Below, piece after piece: positions 28,826 through 47,011 of a DNA stretch of 64,000 nucleotides (its first letter is position 1; every line of letters begins with the position of its first letter). The DNA lies in IMG/VR virus record IMGVR_UViG_3300010396_000003, positions 1 to 64,000 of that record, one strand, 5' to 3'. The notes below the pieces were generated by a model that saw nothing but the letters and a program-made list of their open reading frames with translations, made no database searches and had not been told where the DNA came from. A program made the translations under genes and the position numbers. Source of the DNA: a virus (taxonomy: Duplodnaviria; Heunggongvirae; Uroviricota; Caudoviricetes).

Positions 28826-29307
28826 TCTTGGATCACCTTGTTGACGCTAGCTTCCAATTCAGTCTTTATCTTCGGGAAATTCTCTTCTTCGGATGGCGAC
28901 ATAAATGGTCGCTTAATTACTGGAGGGTGATGAACCATTTGCGCGTACACGAGCTTTCCGTCAACGAGAAATTGCAGAGCTCTCTTCTTCACAGGAACAA
29001 CATCAAATGCGCGCGTACCGCCGTATTCATGGTAACGACCATAGAATGAGTTGTTGGTTCCCGCGGCTGTCACCGTGCCTATAATTTTTGGTCCGGCAAC
29101 CTCTATTGGTAATGGACGCACGCTGTTTTTTAGATTACTGGTTTGTGTTTTTAAGACCTGCCCGGAAAGCTTTTCCTCGCGTACATATGTCGCGAGTTGT
29201 CCCATTAAACCTTCAAGTTTTGTGAAGATAACTGATACGATACGCGGTCCCTTATTACGCATCGTTTCAATGAATTGAGGATTAGATTTAAACGTAATCG
29301 TAATCAT
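28822..29307 (-). CDS. head-tail joining protein candidate
   Basis: 161-aa ORF overlapping its neighbours by 4 nt. Confidence 0.3.
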   Translation of the reverse strand: MITITFKSNPQFIETMRNKGPRIVSVIFTKLEGLMGQLATYVREEKLSGQVLKTQTSNLKNSVRPLPIEVAGPKIIGTVTAAGTNNSFYGRYHEYGGTRAFDVVPVKKRALQFLVDGKLVYAQMVHHPPVIKRPFMSPSEEENFPKIKTELEASVNKVIQE

Positions 29308-29984
29308 TAAAGTGTTCGAGCATACGATTCAACGACGGTTTGGACTTCCGGCGGTATAGACCAGTTCTGGTAACGCGTCGATCCGGCGCCGCCTGACATG
29401 GAACGCGTAGCTTCATCCTGATACTTTCTGCGTTTGTAATTCTGCAACACTACAACATTCGCTGCCGTTTGAATGTCGAGCGGCGTTACGTCATAGCCAG
29501 CAGAATATTGCACATTGATATTTTGAACGCCGCGCCAGAATCTGAGCCCGGATCCTAAAGCTGAAAATGGACCGGAAGGCCAACCCCAGGTTCCGTACGT
29601 TCCCCATCCAGTTAAACTTGAACGCAGAGAAATGCTTTTTCCGGTGCCGTCGACTACCCATCCCTGTACGGCATATCCGCTGGATTGTTGCACGGCAATT
29701 CCGTTGATATTAACGGCGGTAACCGATCGGATCGGCCGGTTATTTAGAAATAGACGGTAAGTTCCTTTGCCGTCATACGTTTCATTGAAGTCGCAGATTG
29801 AATTAAATGGCGATTGCGTGAGGTCTCCGTTTTGATCACCATAACCAGTGAGCCATAGAAACATGGAACCCCACGCGGTTATGCATTGCTGGATTACGTC
29901 ATCATCGTTAATACTGGACGCAGATATTCCGGCCCAATTCTTAAAAATCGCAATCGACGTAAGGTCCAGCTTTGAAACTGTCAT
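29307..29984 (-). CDS. head-tail connector/neck protein candidate
   Basis: 225-aa ORF; call is by position only. Confidence 0.3.
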   Translation of the reverse strand: MTVSKLDLTSIAIFKNWAGISASSINDDDVIQQCITAWGSMFLWLTGYGDQNGDLTQSPFNSICDFNETYDGKGTYRLFLNNRPIRSVTAVNINGIAVQQSSGYAVQGWVVDGTGKSISLRSSLTGWGTYGTWGWPSGPFSALGSGLRFWRGVQNINVQYSAGYDVTPLDIQTAANVVVLQNYKRRKYQDEATRSMSGGAGSTRYQNWSIPPEVQTVVESYARTL

Positions 29985-30811
29985 TAGTAAACGTCTCCCG
30001 CCAACACGGCAGATGCAGGCATGTCACCAATGTATTCATACGTTCCCATGTGGGTCGTCCGCATGAACGGCATTAGATATGCCTTATAACCCATCGCGCA
30101 ACAGTCATGAATAAACCAATAATCTTCCGAGTCGTATTCACGCGTTTCTGGATTAATACCGCACTTAAAGAAATCCCAAATTGGACCTGGCAGAGAATTC
30201 GGATCACACCGAGGCTCATACCAGCGATCACTATAAACTTCTTTAAACTTCAAGAAGACCTCTCGCTTCACCATTAAAATACCGGTTCCTAAATGACGAA
30301 CCTGTTCCGGTTTCGCAAGATCAGCAATCGCAGTTTTTCCAGGAAGATAATTGACAACAAAACTGCCACCAATTCGCTTCAATTCTTCTGCGCTATATTC
30401 ACGGCTTCCGGGACGGCGGATAGCGCGCTGAATTCGATCCCACCTAATTTCCTTTCTGACGCAGGGAGCTCCGATGATATCGAGATCGGATTCAAGCATT
30501 GCAATAATATCCTCGGGCTCAAAACCAATATCGGCGTCGATGAATATAGCGTGGGTATATGGTTTTTTTTGACTGTCGAATCCCTGTTTCAAATAAGCAT
30601 CAGCCAGACGATTACGAGCCCGCGAAATCAACGATTCGTTGTATATACTCTGATAGCCCATTTCAATTGGGGGTTCACCGAGAGAACGCATTTTCTCGGA
30701 AAGATCGCGGATCAAATTGGTCAAACGAACAAAAGAATTGTGGTAATTGGAAGTAAGATTTCCCCCATACATCGGGGTTAAAACACAAAGCGATTTACCT
30801 TTAATTGACAA
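29984..30811 (-). CDS. GT-A fold glycosyltransferase (DxD)
   Basis: CVLTPMYGG N-terminus and HAIFIDADIGFEPEDIIAML DxD region typical of GT2-like enzymes. Confidence 0.45.
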   Translation of the reverse strand: MSIKGKSLCVLTPMYGGNLTSNYHNSFVRLTNLIRDLSEKMRSLGEPPIEMGYQSIYNESLISRARNRLADAYLKQGFDSQKKPYTHAIFIDADIGFEPEDIIAMLESDLDIIGAPCVRKEIRWDRIQRAIRRPGSREYSAEELKRIGGSFVVNYLPGKTAIADLAKPEQVRHLGTGILMVKREVFLKFKEVYSDRWYEPRCDPNSLPGPIWDFFKCGINPETREYDSEDYWFIHDCCAMGYKAYLMPFMRTTHMGTYEYIGDMPASAVLAGDVY

Positions 30812-31205: not shown

Positions 31206-31727
31206 TTACGAAGTCTTCCCATTTGCGAGCGGTAAAGATACGCTTGGGTCTAGTAAAATCAAGGAAGGAAAGTTCTTCCAAACCTCAGAAATACCGCCAT
31301 CCTTAAATTGCATTCTCATTTCGTCTGTTGGGTTTGCCGGTAATTCCTCAAGATAGAAGTGTGGATTATCTTTTATGTGACACCACTTCGCACCTTCGGC
31401 AAGTCCGCACGATGGCGCCGTGGCAAGAAGTTTCTGCCAAGCCGGATGGCTTAAATTCCAGTCCGGCTGACCCGGCATAATATCTTCCGGAACAAGGTCG
31501 ACAGCATACCCAAAGTTGTGCGCCGAATAACCTCCCGGCGTGTTTGTTACGATCTCTCCCGGTTTCGTTCTTCCTTGAGCATAGAGATTGTCTTCCTGAG
31601 CCCAGGTTCTCATTCCTGCGGTTACTTGGAGCGATAGACTAGGAAGCAATTGATCAAGTTGTATGATGCGTCGCGCAAGTTCTGGATGTATTTCTTTAAG
31701 TCTAGCCTGGGATGTTGCTGTAAACAT
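31206..31727 (-). CDS. peptidase M15 family endolysin (L-Ala-D-Glu / D-Ala-D-Ala peptidase-like)
   Basis: VTAGMRT...GGYSAHNFGYAVDLVP matches the SxHxxGxAxD zinc-binding signature of M15 peptidases. Confidence 0.7.
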   Translation of the reverse strand: MFTATSQARLKEIHPELARRIIQLDQLLPSLSLQVTAGMRTWAQEDNLYAQGRTKPGEIVTNTPGGYSAHNFGYAVDLVPEDIMPGQPDWNLSHPAWQKLLATAPSCGLAEGAKWCHIKDNPHFYLEELPANPTDEMRMQFKDGGISEVWKNFPSLILLDPSVSLPLANGKTS

Positions 31728-32134
31728 TATCGAGACCCCGCACGAACATTATTCGGAATTACATAGATACCGTCGTTCAAGGCGACCGGAATGGTCCATA
31801 TCCAAATGATATGACGGTATGATTTATCGGGGGCGTAATGCCATAAAAGGTGGTTTAGCGTTACAGTTCCCATTGTGTATCCTGCGGCCGTACCCCATAC
31901 TCCGATCGTATTCGGATGTTGACCGATGAAGGGTGCCGTTTCTATACAAGATGGACAATTTATTTCTGCAAAACGCGTACTCGCTGCATCGGCAGAAAAC
32001 GCGGCTGCAAGGATCACATCGGATGCGAGTAATTCTTTATGGGAATTAATATAATGCCACGCTTTTCCAAGCGGATTAGCGGTTGCCGCGCCACAAAATA
32101 TCGATAGACAGATTAATAGAATTAACGTCTTCAT
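31727..32134 (-). CDS. secreted hypothetical protein
   Basis: Signal peptide MKTLILLICLSIFCGAATA. Overlaps the endolysin start (ATGA). Confidence 0.4.
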   Translation of the reverse strand: MKTLILLICLSIFCGAATANPLGKAWHYINSHKELLASDVILAAAFSADAASTRFAEINCPSCIETAPFIGQHPNTIGVWGTAAGYTMGTVTLNHLLWHYAPDKSYRHIIWIWTIPVALNDGIYVIPNNVRAGSR

Positions 32135-32223
32135 TATTCCTCCCCAAAAAAATAAGAGCGCCTTTCCCAGGCGCTCTTATTTAGTGAAAAATTTCGCACA
32201 ACCACCGGATCCACCACGGCCAA

Positions 32224-32631
32224 TTACTGCACGGTGGCGGTTGGATTGGTGGGGGTGTTGGGGTTGGAGGGAAAGCTAGACGGGATCGCCACCGTCGCTA
32301 CGTTGCTTGGTCCACTCGTATTACCAATCGAGTCGACAGTATAAACAACATAGCTGTAGGTGGTGCTTACTGATAGTCCAGCAGCCGGATCGAGGAAGCT
32401 TGTTCCCAATACAAGTGAAGAATTCGCTTTCGTCCAAGTGCCAGAGCTCGTCACACACGTTCCCGTACAACGATAAACATTGTAGCCAGCAATAGGATTA
32501 ACATCCGAACCCTGAGAGGCCGCAGTCCATGATGCCAAAACACCATGTTGTGATGCTCCAGGTGCCTGTGCCATCGCCGGCACAGCGGAGACAATCAAAA
32601 ACAACAAAATAGGAAATAATTTCTTAACCAT
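32224..32631 (-). CDS. secreted fibronectin-III-like domain protein
   Basis: Start reassigned to MVKKLFPILLFLIVSAVPAMA (AGGAG RBS). GYNVYRCTG...TYSYVVYTVDSIGNTSGPS is FN3-like. Confidence 0.4.
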   Translation of the reverse strand: MVKKLFPILLFLIVSAVPAMAQAPGASQHGVLASWTAASQGSDVNPIAGYNVYRCTGTCVTSSGTWTKANSSLVLGTSFLDPAAGLSVSTTYSYVVYTVDSIGNTSGPSNVATVAIPSSFPSNPNTPTNPTATVQ

Positions 32632-32714
32632 CGTTTTCTCCTTTTTATTCAAGAGCCGGATCGTTCCCAGCGCTCCGGCTCCCGATTCGTGCGACCCTTC
32701 ATTGACACACGAAA

Positions 32715-32909
32715 TCAATGAGTTTCGTGATGAACAACCGCTTTTAGATCCATTTTGGGATGACGAAGTGGTTGTGTGATTGTTTGCACCGGCTTGTGAA
32801 ATATATGTTGCACGCCATGCTTAATCCCAACGACACCAGCATGTGCACCATAAATTAATAAACCGGCGAGTGCTATTCCGAGAATTACTTGTGGATCTGC
32901 GCTTTCCAT
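32715..32909 (-). CDS. small membrane protein (holin candidate)
   Basis: 64 aa with a TM helix (ILGIALAGLLIYGAHAGVVGI) and a charged His-rich tail. Confidence 0.3.
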   Translation of the reverse strand: MESADPQVILGIALAGLLIYGAHAGVVGIKHGVQHIFHKPVQTITQPLRHPKMDLKAVVHHETH

Positions 32910-32911
32910 GT

Positions 32912-33655
32912 TTATGCCGCCTTTAGAGCTTGAAGATCAGCCTGTAGGGTTTGGAGATCGAATCCGAAAATTGGGGTCTTCTGTGCTGCTGTCAACCAGT
33001 CTTGGGTAATAATTGCGTAAGCTTCATCAACATATGTCTTCCAAAATTCCCAAGACATTTGCTGGCGCTTTGCCCAAGTAATACATGTACAACCAAGAGA
33101 ACCATAACCAAGAACACAGACACAGTGACCACCGACGATATTTTTATCACTCGTATTGTTCCAGGCTTGTCCTGAGCTGAATTCATTCATCGCAGTCTCT
33201 GTAACGTTAAATCCAATGTCGAGACCGCCAAAGATTGTGATCGCTTGTTTAATTGCTGTTATATTTGAGGTGTCGATCTGAGCCCAGCCCAAAATCTTGC
33301 GATTGGCAATACCGGTAGTGCGCCAGTACTCAAGAACATCCGTAATAACGCAGCCATTGTCGTTCATACCGGTTTGCGGGTCATATCCACTAACAGCGGA
33401 ATAACCACGAATGATGTCCTGAAGGCTCGGAATATATAGACCGTAAGTACGCGAGCTCCATTCCATTTCAAGATGTCCAGGACTGGCGAATGTACAATCC
33501 CCGATTTTGTCATTGCCCATCATTGTCCAGTCGGAGATGTTGTATTCGTAGGCAAATGCCCGCGGCGGATCCGCTAACTTTACGTACTTCGATAAATCAA
33601 GCGTTAGCGGATGTTCTTTGCGCGGCAATTTGCCAAGCTTAAGGCTATTCATCAT
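32912..33655 (-). CDS. papain-like (C1-type) cysteine peptidase
   Basis: KIGDCTFAS (Cys nucleophile context) and GGHCVCVLGYG (His context, compare HAVxxVGYG in papain). Confidence 0.45.
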   Translation of the reverse strand: MMNSLKLGKLPRKEHPLTLDLSKYVKLADPPRAFAYEYNISDWTMMGNDKIGDCTFASPGHLEMEWSSRTYGLYIPSLQDIIRGYSAVSGYDPQTGMNDNGCVITDVLEYWRTTGIANRKILGWAQIDTSNITAIKQAITIFGGLDIGFNVTETAMNEFSSGQAWNNTSDKNIVGGHCVCVLGYGSLGCTCITWAKRQQMSWEFWKTYVDEAYAIITQDWLTAAQKTPIFGFDLQTLQADLQALKAA

Positions 33656-33660
33656 TCACC

Positions 33661-34281
33661 TTAGTAAGATCCGAAATGTAGTGTCCGGTACAACATTGAA
33701 TGCACGTGGATTTTATGTTTTGCCGTGTACGAATCCACCGCTTGGTTACCAGTTTTAACAGTCAACTGTGAATTATACGAACTCACGAAGGTCTTAAGTG
33801 GCAATGGAACCGTGCTCGATGCTAGAGATTCCCTCATGGTCACGGCTTGTCTGCAGTTCGGGATAACAGCTAGCACAGCTGTAACCGTGCCGGCAACAAG
33901 GGCGGACAGTGTAATGATTTTTGCCTGTGTCGCTTGATCTGAAATCTGCGCAAGAGACATAACCTGCGCTTCATCCGACGCGTAGGTATTGATTGCTGCC
34001 TGTAACTGTGAGCATGCGGTTGGAGCAGCACTAGCGGAAGCAGCAGCAAAGTCTGCCGCTAAAACCTTGATAGTTTCCGCGTCAGTATTGATTTTTGATG
34101 CGAGCGCAACGTTAATCGGCTGGCCCTTCGCAATGGCGATGATATTCAGGATGTTGATTAATGCTGGTGCGGCTGCAACCAAGATATTATCAACGGTGGT
34201 CACCCAAGAAGCGGAACATCCGGAAATTACCATCACAAAACACAACGACAGAGCCATAAGTGATTTTGAAAATAGTTTCAT
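33661..34281 (-). CDS. lipoprotein
   Basis: Signal peptide with lipobox VISGC. Ala-rich mature protein. Confidence 0.45.
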   Translation of the reverse strand: MKLFSKSLMALSLCFVMVISGCSASWVTTVDNILVAAAPALINILNIIAIAKGQPINVALASKINTDAETIKVLAADFAAASASAAPTACSQLQAAINTYASDEAQVMSLAQISDQATQAKIITLSALVAGTVTAVLAVIPNCRQAVTMRESLASSTVPLPLKTFVSSYNSQLTVKTGNQAVDSYTAKHKIHVHSMLYRTLHFGSY

Positions 34282-34311
34282 GTTTTCTCCTATGTCAGAA
34301 GAACCTACGGA

Positions 34312-35547
34312 TTATTTCGCACCAATGCCAACAGTTTTTTCGACAACACCCATTGGATCGATAAGTACTTTATTTTCATAATTAAGAGTTTTGTATTCCA
34401 GCCACGCGGTCGCGATAACAATTACTGGACTTATTAAAACCTCGGCAAGTGAATGGGAATGTGGTGCCTGTGGATCGTGCGTCTTAACGGTATACCCCAT
34501 GCCCATTAGTAATTCTTTGAGTTTTAATCCTGGAGATTCTTCTGTTACTGGCGTGTTCGGCTTATAGCTTTGACCAAGAATTCCGATTGTACCGAAATTT
34601 CTGTAGTTACATTTGTTTTGGATTTCGGCTGCAATCGAATAAATTAATGCTTCATTTAGATCGTCGGTTGCTACAGAAAGCAACGGAGCTGTCAATCCTC
34701 GAGCCGTATACTGAAAAAGGCGATTGTCTCGCGGCAAACATGGACCTCCGTATGGCATTCCAAAACGCAAACAAGAACGCCCTACGCGTCGATCAGATCC
34801 GACCGCGTCCAAGACTACGTGTGGATTCGCGCCTAACTTCCTAGCAAGTGCCCCGACCTGGTTGGCAAAGCTAATTTTTGTCGTAAGGGCACAATTAACA
34901 GAGATCTTCGCCAGTTCAGCTTCGATCAATGTCATTACTTTGTATCCCTCTTGAACCTTGTAATTCATCCCACGCTCATATAATTCTGTTGTTAGATCCG
35001 CTGCTTTTTTGCTCGACACACCGAACAAACCGAAGTCTGGATATTGGAGATTATCGATAACACTTCCGAGAGCAATGAATTCAGGCTTATACACCAAGTG
35101 AAATGGAAGTTCCTGCATCGCTTCGCGCAATAATGGCAGAAAAACCTTCTCACAAGATCCAGGTGTGACCGTAGAATTGATGATAAAAACATAGTCAGAA
35201 ATACGGCGCGCATAGACCTCATGCGCAACAGATTTCATGGCTACAATTAGATATTCGTTGGAAAAACTGCCATCGGCAAGACTTGGTGTGAGGGTTATAA
35301 AGCAGCAAGCTTCTGTACCGCGGATAGCATCGAGGACTTGAGCTGTGGCGCGAAGGGTTCTGCCGTGCGTTTTCTTTATTAGACGTTCAAGACCCGGTTC
35401 TTGAACGGGAGCCCTACCGGTGTTAATTGCCAGTACTTTTGTTTCGTCAAGATCGAGGCCAACTACATTAACGTCATTTGCAGCAAATAACGCCGCAATG
35501 GGGCTACCCAACTTCCCCAAACCACATACACAAATGTTTTTGATCAC
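34312..35547 (-). CDS. UDP-glucose/GDP-mannose 6-dehydrogenase family (nucleotide-sugar dehydrogenase)
   Basis: N-terminal Rossmann ICVCGLGKLGSPIAALFA, catalytic GMPYGGPCLPRD (compare GGSCFPKD), 411 aa. Confidence 0.8.
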   Translation of the reverse strand: MIKNICVCGLGKLGSPIAALFAANDVNVVGLDLDETKVLAINTGRAPVQEPGLERLIKKTHGRTLRATAQVLDAIRGTEACCFITLTPSLADGSFSNEYLIVAMKSVAHEVYARRISDYVFIINSTVTPGSCEKVFLPLLREAMQELPFHLVYKPEFIALGSVIDNLQYPDFGLFGVSSKKAADLTTELYERGMNYKVQEGYKVMTLIEAELAKISVNCALTTKISFANQVGALARKLGANPHVVLDAVGSDRRVGRSCLRFGMPYGGPCLPRDNRLFQYTARGLTAPLLSVATDDLNEALIYSIAAEIQNKCNYRNFGTIGILGQSYKPNTPVTEESPGLKLKELLMGMGYTVKTHDPQAPHSHSLAEVLISPVIVIATAWLEYKTLNYENKVLIDPMGVVEKTVGIGAK

Positions 35548-35583
35548 GCACTACAGATACACAAAACGGTGAACCGATGATAA

Positions 35584-36315
35584 TTATTTTTTGTGGGGGC
35601 AATCTTCCCAGTGATAAGATTCGTTTCCAAGTGCCATGTCAATTAGATACCACGTTCCGTCTTTTGCTTTAGCAAAATCAATAGACCAATAATCTCCTAG
35701 TTCGGCGCCGGCTGCTTCAGCCAATGGCGTCAAAAAACTAATTTCTTCTTCCGGCTCATTGTTTAGAATAGCCAGTCGTTCTTTCCACGTTCCTTTGGTA
35801 CCTGGTTCGAATATCATCGGCTGCCCGTTAAAGACTTCTTCCGGCCAATAGGGATGATGACATTCAATTTTCCCGTTGCGGACAAAATAACGACGCTCGC
35901 GATTGATGGGCATTTCACCACGGAAGGCTTTAAATGAAATCTCGAGATCCAGGAATTCGCGGAATACAATTGCTTCATACGGCAAACCGAACAGACCTGC
36001 CAACTCATGGAATTCAAGAAGGGATACTAGGTTTTTGCTCAGTACATTCATATTGGGAACATAGCAAGTATTTTTCCACGAGTGTTTTTCTGACGACAAA
36101 TCGGTTCGAAGAAAAAGAGGGAAGCCAAATTTATCCGCCTCTTTCATGAGGTCACTAACAAGACCAGTAAAGTACGGACATTCATCCCCATCGAAAATCG
36201 GAAACACCTTCTCGCGATCTATCGGGATAATTTTCGTCCGCGGGACAGGAATGCCAAGCTTTGATACGCGCGGAAACCAATAGGTAAGGCTAGTTTTGTA
36301 TGGTTTAGAAGGCAT
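35584..36315 (-). CDS. ATP-grasp-like protein
   Basis: FPLFLRTD...EAIVFREFL...YWSIDFAKAKDGTWYLIDMALGNE resembles ATP-grasp motifs. Start set to the internal Met to limit overlap. Confidence 0.3.
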   Translation of the reverse strand: MPSKPYKTSLTYWFPRVSKLGIPVPRTKIIPIDREKVFPIFDGDECPYFTGLVSDLMKEADKFGFPLFLRTDLSSEKHSWKNTCYVPNMNVLSKNLVSLLEFHELAGLFGLPYEAIVFREFLDLEISFKAFRGEMPINRERRYFVRNGKIECHHPYWPEEVFNGQPMIFEPGTKGTWKERLAILNNEPEEEISFLTPLAEAAGAELGDYWSIDFAKAKDGTWYLIDMALGNESYHWEDCPHKK

Positions 36316-37141
36316 GTCCACACTGATTACAACGGCGCATGCCACCAGCCATCCCGAGGGCGCCACTACCGCATTTCGGACAAGCCTTCTTGGATATAGG
36401 GCCGGATGCATGCGCTATCACCGGTTGACCACTAAGCTGCACCGGTGAATGGTCTTTCGATGTGCGGAAGTAATAGAAATACATCGGTTCGTTGATATAA
36501 TGCTCCGATCGCACAACCTTCAATGTTCGAAGTTCATTCGCCCAACGCGCATCTTCGCCATGTCCGCCCGACATTTTTACTTTTAGCGCGAGCTCTGTCT
36601 TTATCGGATTTACATGGGATAGATCGCGATAGTATGCACTGTCGTCTTCTGACCACTTTGTATATTTCAGCGAATGGTAGGTTGGTTTCTGTTTATTTCC
36701 ATCGATAAATAACTGAATGTTGTAGCCGATGTAGTCGACTCCATCGAGTAACGGATAAATTTTAGAGAAATAATCATCGGCAACGATATCGTCATCATCG
36801 ATAAAAACACTATATTCACCCTTGGCTTGCTCGCGGAGTTGCTGACGGTTCGTACCGAGGTCCATTGATTCATCAAAAATACGGGTCAAGACTTCGACAT
36901 GATAATTTCCGTTACCGATTTGCTGTGTTAGAGAAGACATCAGTCGAGAGAGATATGGTGCGCGTGATGGTTGCGTAAGAATCATCACGGTAAGCTTTGG
37001 ACCGGTGATTTTCGGAGTTTCGATTGAATCCAAAGGCTTCGAGTCTTTCTTTACATCTTCCTCGGGTGTGGCGACTATGGGAGTTCCTTCGCGCACCACA
37101 ACATCAACCTTTGGAAGTGGATCTTTCTTTTTCTCGCTCAT
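36305..37141 (-). CDS. GT2-like glycosyltransferase with C-terminal zinc ribbon
   Basis: MILTQPSRAPYL and the acidic EYSVFIDDDDIVADD DxD stretch. C-terminal CPKCGSG...CNQCGH. Confidence 0.5.
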   Translation of the reverse strand: MSEKKKDPLPKVDVVVREGTPIVATPEEDVKKDSKPLDSIETPKITGPKLTVMILTQPSRAPYLSRLMSSLTQQIGNGNYHVEVLTRIFDESMDLGTNRQQLREQAKGEYSVFIDDDDIVADDYFSKIYPLLDGVDYIGYNIQLFIDGNKQKPTYHSLKYTKWSEDDSAYYRDLSHVNPIKTELALKVKMSGGHGEDARWANELRTLKVVRSEHYINEPMYFYYFRTSKDHSPVQLSGQPVIAHASGPISKKACPKCGSGALGMAGGMRRCNQCGHAF

Positions 37142-37818
37142 GTGTTCTCCATGACTGCTCGTAGTTTTTCGATTGCAGCCTCACGTTCCGGCCGCAATTT
37201 TTCATAAAGCAAATCGGGTCGATCTTTCATATGCCGATCAATGCGTTCCTGGTACGTTTGATCGCATTCCGATCTGCCAAACCAAAAGTGTAAATGATCG
37301 ACAATAATCGGCAAGCATTTTCTTCTATTTAATGCATTCGCGCAATCATTTAGAAATGTATCACCGTAATCGCTCGAAAACCAAGGCGCAATAAAGAAAC
37401 CAACAACGTCCGCCCAGCGTCTATGGACAAAACCGTGTGCGCCAAAATCTTTGTAATAGCCGCCGCTGTCGTATGGATGTGTAAACCAGATTTTATCTGA
37501 AGTTTGGGAGTAGAAATTCTCAACAATGATATCCCACCCATATGTTCGATAAACAACATCATCGTTTGACTGCTGCCATATATCTCCAGTGGCAATCTCA
37601 GCGCATTTATTCCAACAATCGCTCAACGTAATTCTCGGCCCAATAATCTTCTTAACTGCAAGTTGATCAGCCATAGCCGCACTTTCCGTATCATCGTTAT
37701 CGATGTATAGAATTATCTCAATTGGTTTCGATGAGGTAAGCCAAACCGATTCAATCATCCGTTGGAGGATTAGCGGTCGCTTACGCGTTGGCAGAAGTAC
37801 GCTGATCATATGCATCAT
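37138..37818 (-). CDS. glycosyltransferase (GT-A fold)
   Basis: ISVLLPTRKRPLIL and IILYIDNDD motifs. Confidence 0.45.
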   Translation of the reverse strand: MMHMISVLLPTRKRPLILQRMIESVWLTSSKPIEIILYIDNDDTESAAMADQLAVKKIIGPRITLSDCWNKCAEIATGDIWQQSNDDVVYRTYGWDIIVENFYSQTSDKIWFTHPYDSGGYYKDFGAHGFVHRRWADVVGFFIAPWFSSDYGDTFLNDCANALNRRKCLPIIVDHLHFWFGRSECDQTYQERIDRHMKDRPDLLYEKLRPEREAAIEKLRAVMENT

Positions 37819-38533
37819 TCTTCATAAAAAGATTGAAATCAAATTCACGGATAACGCTCCACTCCGGGAGCAAAGAAAGCAATTCGGGACGCTCTGCTTG
37901 CCCGTCATACAATGCCTTTTCTTCTGCTTCAATGAACAAATAACGTGCGTGACGCAATGCTTTCTGTCCGCCAGTTATCATTTGGTTCTCGGCACCCTGG
38001 ATATCCACCCACAATAAATCGATCCGCGGCAACGCATATGCATTAAATAGATAATCCAATGTAAAGCATGGGATACCACCGGGAATCGGCCGAAAATCAT
38101 ACCATGGATTTTTTTCAAGATGTCTGGTCGGCATTCGAACGGAACCGGATCCGCGCCCTTCTGGTGTGTAGCATGCCCAAAAATCGCAATTACCGTTACG
38201 ATCAGATATGGCGCCGTAGAGATGACGTCCAGGAATATGCCTGTCGGCTATTCTGCGGTAATTATCTGGATCCGCTTCAACGGTAACAATAATTGGACTT
38301 TTATCTCTGACCGCTTGAAACATCCACTCGGTGTCTTCTCCACAATATGCTCCCAATTCAACAATACAGGGCGCGACTGGACATGAATTTAAAACACTCA
38401 GAACCGCACGCTGTTCATCTGCACTCGCCATATCTACTCCGGTCTCTGAAATACGGCTACACCAACCAATGACGGAAACACTAAATGATGCCAATTCCTT
38501 TGAGATGCAAAACCGGGATACAAACCGGGACAT
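37781..38533 (-). CDS. FkbM-family methyltransferase
   Basis: IVELGAYCGEDTEWM...IVTVEADPDNYRRI resembles FkbM-domain MTases. Confidence 0.45.
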   Translation of the reverse strand: MSRFVSRFCISKELASFSVSVIGWCSRISETGVDMASADEQRAVLSVLNSCPVAPCIVELGAYCGEDTEWMFQAVRDKSPIIVTVEADPDNYRRIADRHIPGRHLYGAISDRNGNCDFWACYTPEGRGSGSVRMPTRHLEKNPWYDFRPIPGGIPCFTLDYLFNAYALPRIDLLWVDIQGAENQMITGGQKALRHARYLFIEAEEKALYDGQAERPELLSLLPEWSVIREFDFNLFMKNDAYDQRTSANA

Positions 38534-38973
38534 TCTTTACAGGCATCATGAAAGGCGACAATTCCCAGCGGTGTGATGTTATTTTCGTTAAGACTAAGCA
38601 ATTCTGATAGACGCACATCCTGAGTTCCGGAATCGATATGTGCAAAATCAATCTGCCTGAATTGTGAAATTAGCTCTTTCCCTTCGCAATGATGGACCGT
38701 TACCGGCAAATACGATAAGCGTTGACGCCCAGCGGAAATCTTCGTTGCATCAATATCGCAGGTGTGGAGATGTCCATACCCATTGTCGGCTAAAGCTTTG
38801 CCGATCCATTCGGCAGAATCGCCAATATAGAGACCTGTTTCGATACAAACATCTGGCTTCATAATGCGCACGAGTGCATATAAAAGAGCACCAACCTCGA
38901 GCTCTACCCCCATCCATAAACGTTTAACGTAGCGGTCAAACGCTCGCGGGCACTCTGGTAATTTTTGATACAT
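38434..38973 (-). CDS. class I SAM-dependent methyltransferase (CmcI/O-MT-like)
   Basis: VCIETGLYIGDSAEWIGKAL glycine-rich SAM motif and a downstream acidic DIDAT. Confidence 0.45.
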   Translation of the reverse strand: MYQKLPECPRAFDRYVKRLWMGVELEVGALLYALVRIMKPDVCIETGLYIGDSAEWIGKALADNGYGHLHTCDIDATKISAGRQRLSYLPVTVHHCEGKELISQFRQIDFAHIDSGTQDVRLSELLSLNENNITPLGIVAFHDACKECPGLYPGFASQRNWHHLVFPSLVGVAVFQRPE

Positions 38974-39964
38974 CCTTGTTTTCTCCGGCAGAAAGGAGCT
39001 CAGTAAACATTTGTTCCAGGGTGAATTTCTTTCTAACTTTCCACATACCGGCTTCCGCTATTTTTTCTCGCTCATCGTCGTGTTCAAGGTAATATCGAAT
39101 TTGCGCGATATTGTCCGGCATCATTCCCATGTCGTAATAAGAAATCTCTTTACCGTTCTCAAAAAGGCTTAGATTATTTTTGGCTGGTGCTGGAAATTTT
39201 GGATACATCACAAAAGTTCCAGATGCCATAACCTCAAAAACCTTTTCAACGATCAGGCGCGACATTGGCGGCAAACAAAAGAAGATTTTCAATTGACGAT
39301 AGTTTTCCGCAAGCAGCTTCATACTTTCTTCGGAGCGGATCCCGCCGATATCTTGGACCACGGCTTGTCCGACATTGAAATTTAAATCGTTGCCGGCGCC
39401 GCGCGCTAGATTCTCAAGGTATGCTCTACGGGTTGGATAAAGAGTTCCGATAAAACCGATCTCATATCTTTTATCTTTCAAATAGCCGAAGCGCGGGTTA
39501 AACATTTCCGTATCTACTGCAAACGGCATCCATTTTCCGCCAAAACGTTCTGCGTCTTGTACGGCCGGAAAATAGAAATAATTTGCCCAGGTTCGTAGTT
39601 CCATCCAGCGATCGGGAAGTCCAAGATCCGTGCGGCAAAAAGATTCATCGAATTTTGCAACAATGGGAACTTTGATCTTACTCCAGTTTTCAAAACCATA
39701 AACGATATCGAGCCATGGCTGCGTATACTCGTGATACATGCTTAAAATCACGTCGCATTCATTTAATTGCTCAATCGTCGGAGCAAGTTTTCGGAGTTTT
39801 TCTACCTGTAGGATGCTTGGTTGATTGTGGTGGGAGACATTACCTGGGAAAGTAAAATGCAGAACTTCATGTCCCATTCTTTTTAGGACATTGAAATAAC
39901 CACCTACCGCATTCCACCCGCCAAGAACATTGTACGGATGAAGCAAACCAACTTTTTTAGGCAT
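38936..39964 (-). CDS. GT-B glycosyltransferase (CgeB/GT1-like)
   Basis: C-terminal EKVFEVMASGTFVMYP resembles the GT1 E..EA.A.G.P motif. Confidence 0.35.
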   Translation of the reverse strand: MPKKVGLLHPYNVLGGWNAVGGYFNVLKRMGHEVLHFTFPGNVSHHNQPSILQVEKLRKLAPTIEQLNECDVILSMYHEYTQPWLDIVYGFENWSKIKVPIVAKFDESFCRTDLGLPDRWMELRTWANYFYFPAVQDAERFGGKWMPFAVDTEMFNPRFGYLKDKRYEIGFIGTLYPTRRAYLENLARGAGNDLNFNVGQAVVQDIGGIRSEESMKLLAENYRQLKIFFCLPPMSRLIVEKVFEVMASGTFVMYPKFPAPAKNNLSLFENGKEISYYDMGMMPDNIAQIRYYLEHDDEREKIAEAGMWKVRKKFTLEQMFTELLSAGENKDVSKITRVPASV

Positions 39965-39982
39965 GCGCGGATTGTATCATGG

Positions 39983-40393
39983 TTAGTGGCCAGTATATGA
40001 TTGAAAACTCGGCAAGGTTTCCGAATTCCACGTTGGACCAGCACCCGACATTTGCAGACTTCCATTCACCGTGACGTTATTTCCGCCTGCCCACTTGCCG
40101 GTTACGCGGAAAGAGTCGTAAAGACTCGACACGGCAATGGTTCTGTTGCTCGTGTTGGCTGTGCTGGAATAGGTGTCCAGCAATACCGGTGATCCTGCCT
40201 GGGCGCCGTAATCATTTGCTGCATTCGTGGCAGGCGAAGAAATTCCTTCAACGGTGATCGTCATGGAAGACGGCGCGCCGTTAATTGTGTAGCCGACAAT
40301 GAGGTTGCCGGATGCCTGATAAACGGCATTCGGCAGATTCAGTTGGAATCCCGATGCGTCCAAAATGAAATTAATGTTGTTTGTCTCGCTCAT
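39983..40393 (-). CDS. hypothetical beta-rich protein (capsid decoration candidate)
   Basis: 136 aa, Ser/Thr/Asn/Gly-rich, adjacent to the capsid gene. Confidence 0.3.
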   Translation of the reverse strand: MSETNNINFILDASGFQLNLPNAVYQASGNLIVGYTINGAPSSMTITVEGISSPATNAANDYGAQAGSPVLLDTYSSTANTSNRTIAVSSLYDSFRVTGKWAGGNNVTVNGSLQMSGAGPTWNSETLPSFQSYTGH

Positions 40394-40467
40394 ATAACAG
40401 GCGCGTTGTGGTCCAATGCGCGCCCCTGGTCATTTAGAGCACCGTTATTTTTAGCGGTGCACCACGC

Positions 40468-40689
40468 TTAGACGCCCTCTGCTGAACCACCATCGATCGT
40501 GTTCGGGTACGGAGCATTCCCGTAAATATAAGCCTGATAGGCTGTAACCGCCTTTTGGGCGGATATTTGTGCTTTCTGGGCGGAAATCAAAGCTGCTTGT
40601 GCTGCGGCCAATGCTGTATTTGCCGCGGCCAAATTCGCATTTAAAGTGGCTAGCTGTGTCACTTGATTCGAATTGGGAGTATGAGCCAT
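40468..40689 (-). CDS. small Ala-rich protein
   Basis: 73-aa ORF. Confidence 0.25.
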   Translation of the reverse strand: MAHTPNSNQVTQLATLNANLAAANTALAAAQAALISAQKAQISAQKAVTAYQAYIYGNAPYPNTIDGGSAEGV

Positions 40690-40752
40690 TTTTTTTACTC
40701 CTGAAAAAAAGGGCGGCTCAATGTCGAGCCGCCCGGAATTTTCCCGTTTCTC

Positions 40753-42711
40753 TTACCGAGCGTACTGTGCCTCGGCTTTTGCGAGAACGCGATCGAAGAC
40801 CTTACGGAATGCCTTCTTAAGGATCGAGCTCTTTGCAATAACCTTCGCTGCCTTCTCTCCAAAGGTGCGGTAGGCTCCAACAAGAACCTTACCCATACCG
40901 CTGCGCTGTTCATAGTCAAGCAACCAGCGACGGCAGAGATTGACGCGCGGACCGGTGAAGAAATCTTCTCCGAATACCACGGCTGCGATATAGCACGGTG
41001 CCACGAATGATCCGATACCCGTACGGATTGCGGAAACCCAAGGCATATAGTGTGCAAGAACTTCCTGCACATACGTACCAAAGGTCCACTGACGGGTCAC
41101 AACTGGCCACTCAATAGAGTAGTAGTCGCGTTGCACGAGGAATGTACGGACGGCCGGTACACGGCTGTGCGGATATGGATTCGTGTTGATGTCATAAAGC
41201 ATGGTTCCCTGCGGGAACATTGGGTGGAGGCGGATCGGAATTGCGGTTCCACCTGCAGGGTTAATGCTGTACTTGGACTTGTAAGCTCCTACGATGAATC
41301 CGCCAGTTAGTCCGCCGCCGATTTGCTCTGCGCGATCAACTGGGAAGATGAAGGAGTTGGTTCCGCTCGATGAATACATTACAGCCGAATCAAGCGCTTG
41401 ACGAACATCAGCCGACACCCAAATTGCGTCTGGCTGAGCTTGATAGTTGGTCCAGAGGAACTGTAGGTCAGTTTCGATTTGCGAAACCTGGCCGTTTCCT
41501 ACCGGAGTGAACGAACCGCCTCCCATGTCTGTCCAAGAACCGTTTTGGAAGGAATATGTTCCGAGACCATCGAAATCGGTTGGCTGGTAGCTGTTGTCGG
41601 TGCTGAGACCAGCAGCATTTGCAAGCTGTGTTCCGGTTGCAGCAGCGGTGATTTGGTACCACGGCCATGCGGTAATCGCTCCGAGTTTTAGGTTGCCAGT
41701 TGCGGAAGCTACGTTCACACCCCAATACCACGCATAAGCGACCGCACCCTTCATTGCTGCGATCGAAACGTTCACACTTCCAAATGACGCGTTCGGAGTT
41801 GTGGCTACAGCCGAGATGTTGGAGATCTGACTCAAACCGCAAGCTACGTTCGTTGTACTTCCATCAGCGTTGGTACGAACATAGTTCGGTGTCAAACCAT
41901 TTGCTACGGTAGGAGGTGCAGCATAACCAGCCTGACCACCCGGGTTGGTTCCCATTGCGGTAAGCGCAACAACCGCAACATACACGTTTGTTCCGCTTCC
42001 TAGACCGGTACCAGCAACTGCGGTTGCGGTTGGTGTTGTTGCCTGGCCCAACTGGAAGCCGAGATTACCGGTTGCAGTTCCGGAGTTGCCCCACAGGGTA
42101 AGCATTTCTTCCTGGAGGCGCAGACGAGCGAGGTTACGGAAATGCTCGTCCGCGATGTTATCGGTATAACCTTCACCTGCCCACTCAGAGGTGAAGGTCA
42201 ATCCACCTTCCATACCGAGCTCTTTATACGTAGCCAGGTAGTCGATTTCGTTTGGCGTGGCCTCTGCGTTACGCTGCCCTTCTTGCACGCCAGCATAAAC
42301 GTAGGTGGAGTTCGGGTTGCGCGTCGCCTTCCAGTGCGCAGCCGTACCTACGCCGGCATTCACCTTTCCCTGACGTCCGATCATCTGAATAAACGGTGTC
42401 AATAATGGGAAAATAAAATATGCCGGACCGCGGAGATCGAAGAAGTTAAAGCCGGTCTGTGTCGACACACCAGCCTTAATTAGTTCGCGACCAACCTGCT
42501 TAATGAGCGGGTTGTCGAGGAAGCTGCTGCCGCCCCACTTACTGAGGTCGACTTTTCCGCCGCCACCACTCTTGTGGTACGGAGAAGTCATAGGCAATGC
42601 TTCTTCCATTAACGCCTTTATTTGTGGATTGGCATAGACCTTCGCCATGATCTTATTGGACTCGTCTATGCACTTCTTGTAATACCCCTGCGGGATGCTT
42701 GCCTTGATCAT
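40753..42711 (-). CDS. major capsid protein candidate (large, with insertion)
   Basis: 652-aa protein directly downstream of the protease and scaffold genes. Call is by synteny only. Confidence 0.45.
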   Translation of the reverse strand: MIKASIPQGYYKKCIDESNKIMAKVYANPQIKALMEEALPMTSPYHKSGGGGKVDLSKWGGSSFLDNPLIKQVGRELIKAGVSTQTGFNFFDLRGPAYFIFPLLTPFIQMIGRQGKVNAGVGTAAHWKATRNPNSTYVYAGVQEGQRNAEATPNEIDYLATYKELGMEGGLTFTSEWAGEGYTDNIADEHFRNLARLRLQEEMLTLWGNSGTATGNLGFQLGQATTPTATAVAGTGLGSGTNVYVAVVALTAMGTNPGGQAGYAAPPTVANGLTPNYVRTNADGSTTNVACGLSQISNISAVATTPNASFGSVNVSIAAMKGAVAYAWYWGVNVASATGNLKLGAITAWPWYQITAAATGTQLANAAGLSTDNSYQPTDFDGLGTYSFQNGSWTDMGGGSFTPVGNGQVSQIETDLQFLWTNYQAQPDAIWVSADVRQALDSAVMYSSSGTNSFIFPVDRAEQIGGGLTGGFIVGAYKSKYSINPAGGTAIPIRLHPMFPQGTMLYDINTNPYPHSRVPAVRTFLVQRDYYSIEWPVVTRQWTFGTYVQEVLAHYMPWVSAIRTGIGSFVAPCYIAAVVFGEDFFTGPRVNLCRRWLLDYEQRSGMGKVLVGAYRTFGEKAAKVIAKSSILKKAFRKVFDRVLAKAEAQYAR

Positions 42712-44934: not shown

Positions 44935-45023
44935 TGGAGGAGCCGAAGGGATTCGAACCCTTAATACCTTACGGTATCGTCTGTTTTCAAAACAGGTGCC
45001 TTGACCATTTCAGCCACGGCTCC
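44935..45023 (-). tRNA. tRNA-Ser(TGA)
   Basis: Hand-folded: acceptor GGAGCCG/CGGCTCC, anticodon loop TTTGAAA, long variable arm, T-loop TTCGAAT, encoded CCA. Confidence 0.65.
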
Positions 45024-45025
45024 CC

Positions 45026-45115
45026 TGGAGGATGACGGCGGAATCGAACCACTAACCGATCTCTCGGTTACCCCACGCTTCGAACGTAGTTGGCGACCAT
45101 TCGCCGGCGCCATCC
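45026..45115 (-). tRNA. tRNA-Ser(CGA)
   Basis: Acceptor GGATGGC/GTCATCC (one GU), anticodon loop TTCGAAG, long variable arm, CCA. Confidence 0.6.
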
Positions 45116-45119
45116 GATA

Positions 45120-45206
45120 TGGCGGAACGTCCGAGACTCGAACTCGGGACACCTTGCGGTGTTCCTGCTTTCCAAGCAGGTGCAGTAGCCACTGTGCCAA
45201 CGTTCC
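45120..45206 (-). tRNA. tRNA-Ser(GGA)
   Basis: Acceptor GGAACGT/ACGTTCC, anticodon loop TTGGAAA, long variable arm, T-arm CCGAGTTCGAGTCTCGG. Confidence 0.65.
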
Positions 45207-45216
45207 GTTATTTTTT

Positions 45217-45302
45217 TGGCGGGGATGGTGAGAATCGAACTCACGACACCTTGCGGTGTTCTATCTTAGCAGGATAGTGCCGTACCACTGGGCCACATCC
45301 CC
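45217..45302 (-). tRNA. tRNA-Ser(GCT)
   Basis: Acceptor GGGGATG/CATCCCC, anticodon loop CTGCTAA, long variable arm. Confidence 0.65.
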
Positions 45303-45346
45303 GAACTTGAGCTAGAACTACTTGACGAATCTTCTGACATTTCGTT

Positions 45347-45565
45347 CTACCCCTTCGTAAGATGGTGCCGATGGCACTCGCGACAGAAATAAATTCGAAG
45401 TTTAGCGCGCAATCCGATCATCGCTTTACGCGCGCGATCCCGGCTTGGATAAGATATTTTGCCGGATTTTTCGCAAACAGGGAATGGTAGCTCTCGATGA
45501 TATTCAAAAGAAACTTCCTCAAGAACGCCCTCGATTACTTCCATAGCAACGCGATAATACCACAA
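45347..45565 (-). CDS. hypothetical small zinc-ribbon protein
   Basis: 72-aa ORF with CEKSG...CRECHRHH inside the tRNA array. Confidence 0.25.
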   Translation of the reverse strand: MWYYRVAMEVIEGVLEEVSFEYHRELPFPVCEKSGKISYPSRDRARKAMIGLRAKLRIYFCRECHRHHLTKG

Positions 45566-45601
45566 ATTACGGCGATAATTACATTGATTACCAGATAGAA
45601 A

Positions 45602-45675
45602 TGGTCCCTATCCGGGGAGTTGAACCCCGCTTGCCGGCTTTTCAGACCGGAGTCTTGCCGCTAGACGAAATAGGG
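45602..45675 (-). tRNA. tRNA-Phe(GAA)
   Basis: Acceptor CCCTATT/GATAGGG (C1-G72), anticodon stem CCGGT/GCCGG, loop CTGAAAA, discriminator A, CCA. Confidence 0.6.
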
Positions 45676-45680
45676 ATTAA

Positions 45681-45754
45681 TGGTAGAGATGCCGGGAATT
45701 GAACCCGGTGCTCGGCTTCCCGAAAGCCGCGATCGACCGTCCATCTACATCTCT
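45681..45754 (-). tRNA. tRNA-Pro(CGG)
   Basis: Acceptor AGAGATG/CATCTCT, anticodon loop TTCGGGA, T-arm CCGGGTTCAATTCCCGG. Confidence 0.6.
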
Positions 45755-45755
45755 A

Positions 45756-45832
45756 TGGTGGCAGAGGCGGGATTCGAACCCGCAGTTCCTTGCTCCCAAA
45801 GCAAGTGGGATAAGCCGTTACCCTACTCCGCC
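45756..45832 (-). tRNA. tRNA-Pro(TGG)
   Basis: Acceptor GGCGGAG/CTCTGCC, anticodon loop TTTGGGA, T-arm GCGGGTTCGAATCCCGC. Confidence 0.65.
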
Positions 45833-46151
45833 AAACTTTGCTTCCACAATTTCATTTTCTGTCGCGGATCGTTTCGCGGTGCAGCTCGAGCCCGCGCGTC
45901 AACTACCTGGTGCAGTGCCAGCGGAAAGATCAATTGTTCAATCTTCGCCGGAATCTTCTCGATCAAGAATTCGTAAAACCACTTCTGCCACATCTTCGGA
46001 TTATGGCGATCATCAAAAACTTGTGGAGTACTCGGCATCGACCAGCAACCAAAACAGTTCATATCTGGTCCACCAGTCGCCAAGTATGTAAGGTTTTGAA
46101 ATGCTGTTATTCCACCGATCGTCGCTATATACACGCTTTCCTCAAAAAAAA

Positions 46152-46226
46152 TGGAGCCGATGGTCACGCTCGAAGTGACAGAGGACGGGTACAAGCCGTC
46201 TGCTTTTCCTCTTAAGCTACATCGGC
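46152..46226 (-). tRNA. tRNA-Thr(TGT)
   Basis: Acceptor GCCGATG/CATCGGC, D-stem GCTT/AAGC, anticodon stem GACGG/CCGTC, loop CTTGTAC, T-arm GTCACTTCGAGCGTGAC. Confidence 0.65.
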
Positions 46227-46372
46227 AATATTTTTACAAAGACGAATCTTTTTACTTCCGTCTTCCAATATGACATGCACGCATTCTTTGCAGTTATTGA
46301 CGTGCTGTCTTTGAGCATCGCTAAGTTCGCTCATACGGTACATTTTTTCAGTAAATGGTATTTCCATAAACT

Positions 46373-46446
46373 TGGAGCGGTTGACGAGAATCGAACTCGC
46401 GCTAAGACGTTGGCAACGTCCTGGACTACCACTATCCGACAACCGC
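46373..46446 (-). tRNA. tRNA-Gly(GCC)
   Basis: Acceptor GCGGTTG/CAACCGC, anticodon loop TTGCCAA, T-arm CGAGTTCGATTCTCG. Confidence 0.65.
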
Positions 46447-46501
46447 AAAAGAGTCGGCATTCGAATGACGCGCTTTCAACGCTACCGACTCTTCAAAGAA
46501 C

Positions 46502-47004: not shown

Positions 47005-47011
47005 TCAGACC

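Follow-up and report, generated by a model that had tools for sequence, protein, structure and literature searches.

What do the sugar-active enzymes encoded between the capsid gene and the head-tail adaptor gene of a soil phage act on? The stretch analysed here (the window; 64,000 nucleotides, positions 1 to 64,000 of IMG/VR record IMGVR_UViG_3300010396_000003) carries on its minus strand seven contiguous open reading frames (ORFs) that fill 34312-39964, and further downstream in transcription order a gene for a 275-aa glycosyltransferase (GT) of the GT-A fold. These eight genes are called the cassette. The best-supported reading, to which we give a probability of about 0.5, is that the enzymes glycosylate virion proteins in the cytoplasm, attaching a short, methylated, uronic-acid-bearing glycan that differs between related phages. 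Four lines of evidence lead to it: the homology of one GT to gp108 of mycobacteriophage Che8, the fixed position between the capsid gene and the connector, an operon that runs on into the adaptor gene, and the exchange of sugar-tailoring genes among relatives.

Enzymes of the cassette

Family membership was assigned at the Pfam gathering score, and PHROGs and NCBIfam concurred where they hold models. All seven contiguous ORFs passed this threshold (Table 1). They encode a nucleotide-sugar 6-dehydrogenase, an ATP-grasp protein, two GT2 glycosyltransferases (the one with a C-terminal zinc ribbon is called GT2zn), an FkbM-family methyltransferase, a class I S-adenosylmethionine (SAM) methyltransferase, and a GT-B glycosyltransferase. 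A first-pass annotation, made by a model from the letters without database searches, had named seven contiguous minus-strand genes of these families, and the domain search of each ORF that it proposed as a check upheld the glycosyltransferase, methyltransferase, and dehydrogenase assignments.

The dehydrogenase carries the Rossmann GxGxxG motif and the GGPCLPRD motif with the catalytic Cys. It passed the TIGR03026 model, 'nucleotide sugar dehydrogenase' (248.5 bits against a cut-off of 189.8), and fell below the cut-offs of all substrate-specific equivalog models (AglM, TuaD, Ugd, WecC, and TviB), the best of which was AglM with 187 bits against 670. Its best solved relatives were UDP-glucose 6-dehydrogenases (E 9e-50). 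As no equivalog passed and the nearest solved relatives are of this kind, UDP-glucose is a probable substrate and not an assigned one, and the predicted product is a uronic-acid donor.

The AlphaFold2 (AF2) model of the GT-B protein, with a predicted local distance difference test (pLDDT) of 93.5, showed a GT4-like fold. Foldseek matched it with BshA, PglA, MshA, and PimA at E 5e-11 and weaker, and further structural matches were a tetrahydrobiopterin glucosyltransferase and a methylmannose-polysaccharide mannosyltransferase. About 75 close homologues, all metagenomic, were found before the score dropped to E 6e-6, and tblastn against 50,697 phage records gave no match. Judged by these searches, the GT-B family is essentially confined to this phage lineage, which fits a lineage-specific acceptor.

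BshA, MshA, and other best matches of the GT-B protein are small-molecule or soluble-glycan enzymes. Together with the two methyltransferases, they would suit a soluble methylated oligosaccharide or a glycosylated small molecule (polymethylated-polysaccharide-, thiol- or pterin-like) made for phage metabolism. We consider such a product very improbable. It leaves the obligatory capsid/connector position and the tailoring-enzyme turnover described below unexplained, four transferases of three fold types exceed the usual need, and we know of no phage precedent for a cassette that makes a soluble oligosaccharide or small-molecule glycoside.

The further glycosyltransferase that the first-pass annotation had listed among the neck genes is the 275-aa protein. 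Its AF2 model (pLDDT 94.5) confirmed a GT-A fold, though the Pfam match to Anp1 was sub-threshold. D92 and D94 (DxD) were invariant, and S-E-D-Y was conserved. The best match in the PDB by Foldseek was STIV A197 (E 2.5e-8), followed by Mnn9, LH3, COLGALT1, and RmlT, and viral GT-A proteins matched the model at template modelling (TM) scores of 0.72-0.79. Sequence searches of solved structures with the ATP-grasp protein, the GT-B protein, and a profile of the 275-aa GT-A gave nothing significant.

The eight enzymes are soluble by prediction: over 19 residues their Kyte-Doolittle hydropathy does not exceed 1.7, and they have neither membrane segments nor signal peptides. No Pfam family of a flippase, polymerase, ligase, Wzx/Wzy, Gtr-type or priming phosphoglycosyltransferase occurred in the cassette. 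The acceptor must therefore be reachable from the cytoplasm. The earlier judgement that this is not a classical seroconversion cassette is well supported by the lack of membrane segments and of Gtr-type, Wzx/Wzy, and priming transferase components.

Homology of GT2zn to Che8 gp108

The only demonstrated cases of virion glycosylation by a phage's own enzymes are, to our knowledge, in mycobacteriophages (2023), and the trait has been considered rare elsewhere. A 2023 study by Freeman et al. in Cell Host Microbe (31:1216) is said to describe virion glycosylation by gp108-110 of mycobacteriophage Che8. Among the 50,697 phage records, tblastn with GT2zn matched only Mycobacterium, Gordonia, and Actinoplanes phages, with Che8 gp108 at E 2e-11. 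In a blastp search of a three-protein database, GT2zn and the GT2 domain of gp108 were 30% identical over 199 aa (E 1e-23). Passages of two papers that cite Freeman et al. 2023 state that Che8-type phages bear glycans on capsid and tail-tube subunits (PMC11256854, PMC12619734).

GT2zn starts with a disordered N-terminus of Lys, Glu, and Pro and is terminated by the zinc ribbon (36317-36382, residues 250-278, CPKCGS..GG..CNQCG). In every relative GT2zn closes with this ribbon. A different enzyme, a methyltransferase fusion, has it at its end in the related loci L004 and L021 (L004 16079-16144), and in L007-type phages it is found additionally in an ORF ~7 kb upstream of the capsid gene (L007 2972-3040). 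From this distribution it looks like a portable docking or binding module.

Conserved order and turnover among relatives

An IMG/VR scan with the capsid protein gave 21 related loci (L-numbers) with 66-75% identity, and protein look-ups gave two further sets. Synteny was taken from tblastn and ORF maps. In all relative loci of sufficient length the cassette lay between the capsid gene and the head-tail adaptor gene. The common order was capsid, small gene or fibre, GT-B, variable slot, GT2, GT2zn, second variable slot, 275-aa GT-A, and adaptor, and it included L036 at 65% capsid identity. GT2 occurred in nearly all relatives, and GT2 and GT2zn were at times fused or duplicated. GT-B and the 275-aa GT-A were present in every relative long enough, and L013 retained these two alone; we propose this pair as the core ancestral to the lineage. 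Across 11 genomes, the pairwise identities of GT-B and the 275-aa GT-A tracked those of the capsid protein (r = 0.89 and 0.97, respectively; Mantel p ~2e-4). The cultured Brevundimonas phage Polewnik, whose capsid protein is 32% identical, has the capsid gene, a small gene, and the connector with the cassette absent. The cassette has therefore been inserted precisely where head and neck genes meet, and it has been stable in the lineage.

The two variable slots held genes for FkbM and class I methyltransferases, polysaccharide pyruvyl transferase, polysaccharide deacetylase, a GT-D-like protein, an epimerase/dehydratase, and the dehydrogenase. The Methyltransf_24 gene of the window was found again in L002, L003, and L015, FkbM copies ranged from 0 to 3 across relatives, and the dehydrogenase was present in L002-L005, L015, L021, L023-L025, and L036. 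Such variation of tailoring genes is the pattern expected for an exposed glycan under diversifying selection, and as these genes swap between relatives, each phage would show a different glycan.

Selfish elements target the dehydrogenase gene in relatives. In L036 (6618-9017) the gene is interrupted by an intein with Hint and LAGLIDADG matches, and in L002 (18707-20367) a GIY-YIG homing endonuclease gene lies beside a truncated dehydrogenase copy.

An insertion and a probable second one in the window

In relatives the dehydrogenase or GT2zn gene adjoins the 275-aa GT-A gene directly. In the window, a lysis/envelope block without tblastn match in any relative locus lies between them; as the relatives have no such block at this site, the cassette of the window has been split by an insertion. 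The inserted genes encode a lipobox lipoprotein, a 247-aa Cys/His protein, a 64-aa holin-like protein with one transmembrane segment, a secreted fn3-like Ser/Thr-rich protein, a signal-peptide protein, and an M15 endolysin. Membrane segments and signal peptides thus occur in the proteins of the insertion and not in the eight enzymes. The first-pass annotation had placed the cassette next to a lipoprotein, a papain-like peptidase, and an endolysin. The lipoprotein and the M15 endolysin were identified correctly. The supposed peptidase is the 247-aa Cys/His protein (32912-33655), which matched only PHROG 19005, of unknown function, and nothing in Pfam or NCBIfam. The block as a functional neighbour of the cassette was not upheld, since it is absent from the relatives' loci. 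On the same ground, we reject the idea that the genes for the lipoprotein, the peptidase, and the endolysin cooperate with the cassette.

The insertion bears on a second alternative, in which the transferases would remodel the host envelope. They would act at the cytoplasmic face on lipid-linked O-antigen, capsule or teichoic-type intermediates, and the changed surface would exclude other phages or keep progeny from re-adsorbing to debris. Iyer et al. 2021 (PMC7824862) proposed such a role for the polymorphic GT clusters that large phages carry. Many polysaccharide transferases are likewise peripheral and without membrane segments, the structural matches include RmlT, PglA, and PimA, and surface polysaccharides typically contain uronic acids and O-methyl, pyruvyl, and deacetylated sugars. 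The cassette of the window also abuts envelope-directed proteins, but this adjacency is window-specific. Moreover, the cassette holds neither a gene for priming, export or polymerisation (priming transferase, flippase, polymerase) nor a Gtr-type component. A host-adapted moron would not be expected to keep a fixed place between capsid and connector genes, to have diverged vertically along with the capsid, or to include a GT-B restricted to one lineage. The 34 tRNA genes of the window and the lack of an integrase match among its larger ORFs suggest a virulent phage, for which late surface modification would bring little benefit. We rate envelope remodelling as improbable.

The ATP-grasp protein belongs to the R2K.3 family as a predicted amidoligase, and its biochemical function is unknown for the family as a whole (PMC4431377). 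The gene was absent from the cassettes of all 21 relatives. Homologues with 49-53% identity, which carry PF14243, were located among DnaB, ribonucleotide reductase, and NAD-salvage genes of other phage-like contigs. The family named by the first-pass annotation stands; judged from these comparisons, the gene is probably an independent insertion or hitch-hiker and not an integral member of the pathway. If it did participate, amidation of the uronic-acid carboxylate would be its chemically obvious role. This idea is weakened by the replication and NAD-salvage neighbourhoods of the homologues and by the relatives' cassettes, none of which has the gene.

Candidate acceptors

By tblastn, the 652-aa capsid protein matched the 'major capsid protein' of Arthrobacter phage Mufasa8 and proteins of Brevundimonas phages. 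It is the sole candidate acceptor found in all relatives. Its basic, helical C-terminal extension of ~80 aa (residues ~573-652; 40753-40990) is present only in the window, L001, and L002, and the capsid proteins of the other relatives end at residue ~559-573.

The 73-aa and 136-aa proteins encoded after the capsid gene are further candidates. The 73-aa protein matched by blastp small post-capsid ORFs in L002, L003, L004, L005, L013, and L015 (E 1e-10 to 8e-5). The 136-aa homologue is absent from some relatives, and in others it forms the N-terminal domain of 600-1160-aa proteins (L007 11639-14971, with equivalents in L010, L014, and L017), which are likely head fibres. The long protein of L007, the only one scanned, contained collagen triple-helix repeats and two F5/8 type C (discoidin) domains. 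The first-pass annotation had placed the cassette directly downstream of the capsid and decoration genes. Its position was correct, with a terminator-like hairpin and the overlooked 73-aa gene lying between the capsid gene and the 136-aa gene.

Proposed pathway and its weighing

In the pathway that we infer, with respect to acceptor, step order, and sugar identities alike, the dehydrogenase would oxidise a nucleotide sugar of the host (UDP-glucose being the likeliest) to its uronic acid. The four soluble transferases (GT-B, the two GT2 enzymes, and the 275-aa GT-A) would assemble a short oligosaccharide on a head protein, at a residue exposed on the surface, and the FkbM and Methyltransf_24 enzymes would O-methylate its sugars.

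Several points weigh against virion glycosylation. No acceptor motif was found, and the C-terminal 30 residues of the capsid protein and the putative tail tube protein are not Ser/Thr-rich, unlike those reported for Che8. Co-divergence with the capsid is expected for any stably linked gene. Lipid-linked intermediates of the host are also within reach of soluble, peripheral transferases. Late expression of the cassette is presumed from its position. The fold matches are acceptor-agnostic; taken with the isoelectric points (pI), they are too weak to decide between protein and DNA as acceptor. The GT-B protein also matched the DNA-bound T4 alpha-glucosyltransferase by Foldseek (E 7e-9). The cultured-phage homologues of GT2 are in Streptomyces phages and in Pelagibacter phage HTVC008M, and those of the Streptomyces phages lie among DNA-metabolism genes. 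Remote homologues of the 275-aa GT-A (30-39% identity) are located in T4-like replication modules.

These last matches lead to DNA glycan hypermodification, in which a methylated, uronic-acid oligosaccharide on hydroxymethylated pyrimidines would shield phage DNA from host nucleases. In Sinorhizobium phage phiM12 (L034 4974-5951) and Stenotrophomonas phage DLP6 (L035 4974-5831), such homologues are encoded between gp46 and gp45. In the T4-like L037 a PHROG 1574 homologue (9001-9795) lies beside a dTDP-sugar isomerase gene, ~8 kb from a Tet_JBP gene, and these T4-like homologues may be unrecognised DNA glycosyltransferases. A UDP-glucose dehydrogenase and GT cluster of Bacillus phage SP-15 has been linked to its glucuronate-bearing DNA base (PMC5977210). 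Known DNA-modifying GT-B enzymes share the top structural matches of the cassette's GT-B (BshA, MshA), PglA and T4 alpha-glucosyltransferase are likewise reported as neighbours of phage enzymes of this kind, the zinc ribbon could bind DNA, and DNA-glycan clusters likewise hold sequential transferases and sugar-tailoring enzymes.

In the DNA-glycan clusters described so far, the neighbouring genes are of C5-methyltransferase, 5mYOX/TET or thymidylate-synthase-like type (Pyle et al., bioRxiv 10.1101/2023.12.21.572611). A search for hydroxymethylase, TET/JBP, and C5-methylase genes found none in the cassette, in 20 of the larger remaining ORFs of the window or in the 10 kb past each end, a span of ~84 kb of the 152-kb genome (the flanks were covered by precomputed Pfam matches). 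Both methyltransferases belong to small-molecule or sugar O-methyltransferase families and not to DNA methyltransferase families. The cassette stays within the head/neck block in the window and all relatives, never in a replication module. The transferases are neutral to acidic (pI 5.6-7.1), and the phage homologues of GT2zn are in actinophage groups linked to virion glycosylation. DNA as acceptor is unlikely, but it is a live rival. Were it correct, the head module would code for a complex DNA glycan of a new kind, a result of no less interest.

The first-pass annotation had suggested glycosylation and methylation of virion proteins. The conserved position, the co-divergence with the capsid, and the homology to Che8 gp108 speak for this proposal; the fold matches do not discriminate between acceptors, and the acceptor proteins named here are candidates.

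Implications

A broader proposal, which we put forward only tentatively, is that this lineage of large, tRNA-rich soil siphophages maintains a capsid-linked 'glycan serotype' locus. A core transferase pair would be wired to the capsid, and exchangeable tailoring enzymes for uronic-acid formation, O-methylation, pyruvylation, de-N-acetylation, and epimerisation would give each phage its own sugar coat on the head. The zinc ribbon would dock the enzymes onto the procapsid. Such a locus would be a viral counterpart of O-antigen diversification and the first virion glycosylation system outside actinobacteriophages.

If virion proteins are indeed the acceptors, glycosylation of the particle would extend to a lineage of soil phages that is abundant and unrelated and whose hosts are probably diderm bacteria. 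The locus would be far more elaborate and have its own nucleotide-sugar chemistry. Its hypervariability among close relatives would imply selection on the particle surface, possibly through adhesion to soil or biofilm matrix, evasion of capsid-sensing defences or grazers, or particle stability. The cassette would also supply a toolbox of soluble protein-glycosylating enzymes.

Gene boundaries and expression

The coordinates of the features are collected in Table 1.

Table 1. Coordinates of the cassette genes and of neighbouring features in the window
Feature	Position	Strand	Family or basis
GT-B glycosyltransferase, GT4-like fold	38936..39964	-	Glyco_trans_1_2, PF13524, E 2e-13
Class I SAM methyltransferase	38434..38973	-	Methyltransf_24 (PF13578), E 4e-10
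FkbM-family methyltransferase	37781..38431 (ORF to 38533)	-	FkbM / Methyltransf_21, E 6e-15; passes TIGR01444
GT2 (GT-A) glycosyltransferase	37138..37818	-	Glycos_transf_2, E 1e-6; PHROG 14945, 1e-28
GT2zn, GT2 with C-terminal zinc ribbon	36305..37141	-	Glycos_transf_2, E 8e-6; PHROG 14775, 4e-33
R2K.3 ATP-grasp, predicted amidoligase	35584..36315 (ORF to 36411)	-	R2K_3, PF14243, E 1e-11; 45.8 bits against cut-off 26.3
Nucleotide-sugar 6-dehydrogenase (UDP-Glc/GDP-Man dehydrogenase family)	34312..35547	-	PF03721, PF00984, PF03720; E 6e-30, 7e-21, 5e-12
275-aa GT-A-fold glycosyltransferase, last cassette gene	29984..30811	-	PHROG 1574; Pfam Anp1 only sub-threshold
Major capsid protein-like gene, 652 aa	40753..42711	-	PHROG 13692, 4e-69
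Strong intrinsic-terminator-like hairpin	40711..40734	-	10-bp stem, 8 G-C pairs, T7 tail; 19 nt past capsid stop; consensus match
73-aa Ala/Gln-rich gene, between capsid and 136-aa genes	40468..40689	-	blastp to relatives
136-aa Ser/Thr-rich (24%) acidic protein	39983..40393	-	Candidate acceptor, not universal
Lysis/envelope insertion splitting the cassette	31206..34281	-	No tblastn match in any relative locus
Head-tail adaptor gene	29307..29984	-	PHROG 442; downstream cassette boundary in all relatives

The probable starts of the FkbM (38431) and ATP-grasp (36315) genes make both shorter than their ORFs. GT2 and GT2zn overlap by 4 nt, GT2zn and ATP-grasp overlap by 11 nt, the Methyltransf_24 and FkbM genes are separated by 2 nt, and the stop of the 275-aa GT-A overlaps the adaptor start by 1 nt. 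Translational coupling, which the first-pass annotation had assumed throughout, holds at these four junctions; the remaining ones have gaps of 18-36 nt or ambiguous starts. Because of the 1-nt overlap with the adaptor gene, the 275-aa GT-A is read with the neck genes.

Read-through of the head operon would drive the cassette, and the hairpin after the capsid gene would hold its expression below that of the capsid protein. A promoter scan gave fewer sigma-70-like sites than shuffled sequence, and no promoter is therefore claimed.

Genome and gene neighbourhood

The window belongs to a 152,445-bp metagenomic contig (ENA ERZ27256653, k141_4613762), which represents a ~152-kb, tRNA-rich soil phage genome with a G+C content of 41-52%. 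A megablast search with window positions 34000-40500 gave no match among the 50,697 deposited phage genomes, and a scan for capsid peptide patterns across 185,579 species genomes found no relative.

In transcription order, the cassette is preceded by a tRNA array, a protease-like gene, a scaffold-like gene, and the 652-aa capsid gene. After the dehydrogenase come the six envelope/lysis genes, the 275-aa GT-A, and the head-tail adaptor, neck, tail-tube, and tape-measure genes; the putative tail tube gene is at 27364-28131. All 34 tRNA genes are on the minus strand. Thirty-three form one array (44935-52945) directly upstream of the head-protease-like gene, the 34th is further upstream at 57781-57850, and nearly all amino acids are covered. 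The array explains why the stretch from 45 to 53 kb has no long ORFs, and it points to a large, probably virulent phage. No integrase match was found among the larger window ORFs scanned.

Unusual phage cargo lies at 59202-63461: a gene for a 596-aa protein whose C-terminus is an OmpA domain, and close to it genes for an ABC-transporter ATPase and for a weakly permease-like protein, the latter from a sub-threshold Pfam match. The genes for the OmpA-domain protein and the lipoprotein are a hint that the host is a diderm. Genes for a HerA/DUF87-like ATPase, an SPFH/Band 7 protein, and RecT lie at 6436-14129, and a Ku gene is found just past window position 1 (L038). On the other side, ~2-6 kb past window position 64000 (L039 4180-7707), an adenylosuccinate-synthetase-family gene and a NAMPT-type gene were observed. 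The former is possibly PurZ-like, which would imply 2-aminoadenine DNA.

Comparison with known systems

Capsid glycans with methylated sugars in chlorovirus PBCV-1, the clade-specific fibril glycan clusters of mimiviruses, and STIV A197 are known from giant and archaeal viruses. Like the cassette, these viruses use soluble transferases and sugar-tailoring enzymes of their own in clusters of clade-specific content, and a PBCV-1 protein and collagen-lysine glycosyltransferase-like proteins of giant viruses appeared in the viral fold search with the 275-aa GT-A. However, their hosts are eukaryotes or archaea, their capsid lineages are unrelated, and the link is at the fold level only (TM 0.45-0.6).

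Gtr/O-antigen seroconversion cassettes share phage-borne glycosyltransferases with the cassette. They need membrane proteins (flippase, membrane transferase) and adjoin integration modules, whereas the cassette is without membrane proteins and the larger ORFs scanned gave no integrase match. DNA-hypermodification clusters (T4 alpha/beta-GT, those of Pyle et al., and SP-15) resemble it in their sequential GT-A and GT-B enzymes, tailoring enzymes, and generic structural neighbours. The cassette differs in having no adjacent base-hydroxymethylating or DNA-methylating enzyme and in lying in the head module instead of the replication module.

Architecturally, the closest system is the Pas33-Pas35 cassette of Actinoplanes phage phiAsp2, and of all cultured-phage proteins Pas33 matches GT2zn best (32% identity, E 6e-19). 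Pas33-Pas35 are annotated as GT, O-methyltransferase, and GT, are translationally coupled by annotation, and follow the structural genes on the same strand; Pas34 carries Methyltransf_24. The phiAsp2 cassette has three genes, lies after the tail genes and not between capsid and connector, is without dehydrogenase and GT-B, and has a predicted function.

The functionally closest known system is Che8-type virion glycosylation. Both have soluble phage transferases and an O-methyltransferase, GT2zn is homologous to the GT2 of gp108, and the Methyltransf_24 family occurs in both. In Che8 it forms the C-terminal half of gp108 (which passes PF13578), whereas the methyltransferase here is a separate gene without detectable pairwise similarity to gp108: hhalign gave a probability of only 2.5%, that is, the same Pfam family and no specific relationship. 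The Che8 system comprises three genes, located at the right end of the 59-kb genome of a temperate actinophage, and the present one comprises eight genes in the head/neck block of a ~152-kb phage. No counterpart of the GT25 protein gp110 is present in the cassette, and the GT-B, 275-aa GT-A, nucleotide-sugar dehydrogenase, FkbM, and ATP-grasp proteins are additional to the Che8 set. The differences from the Che8 type are thus substantial and concern the phage lineage, the probable diderm host, the genomic position, the two extra transferase types, the dehydrogenase, and the lineage-wide hypervariability.

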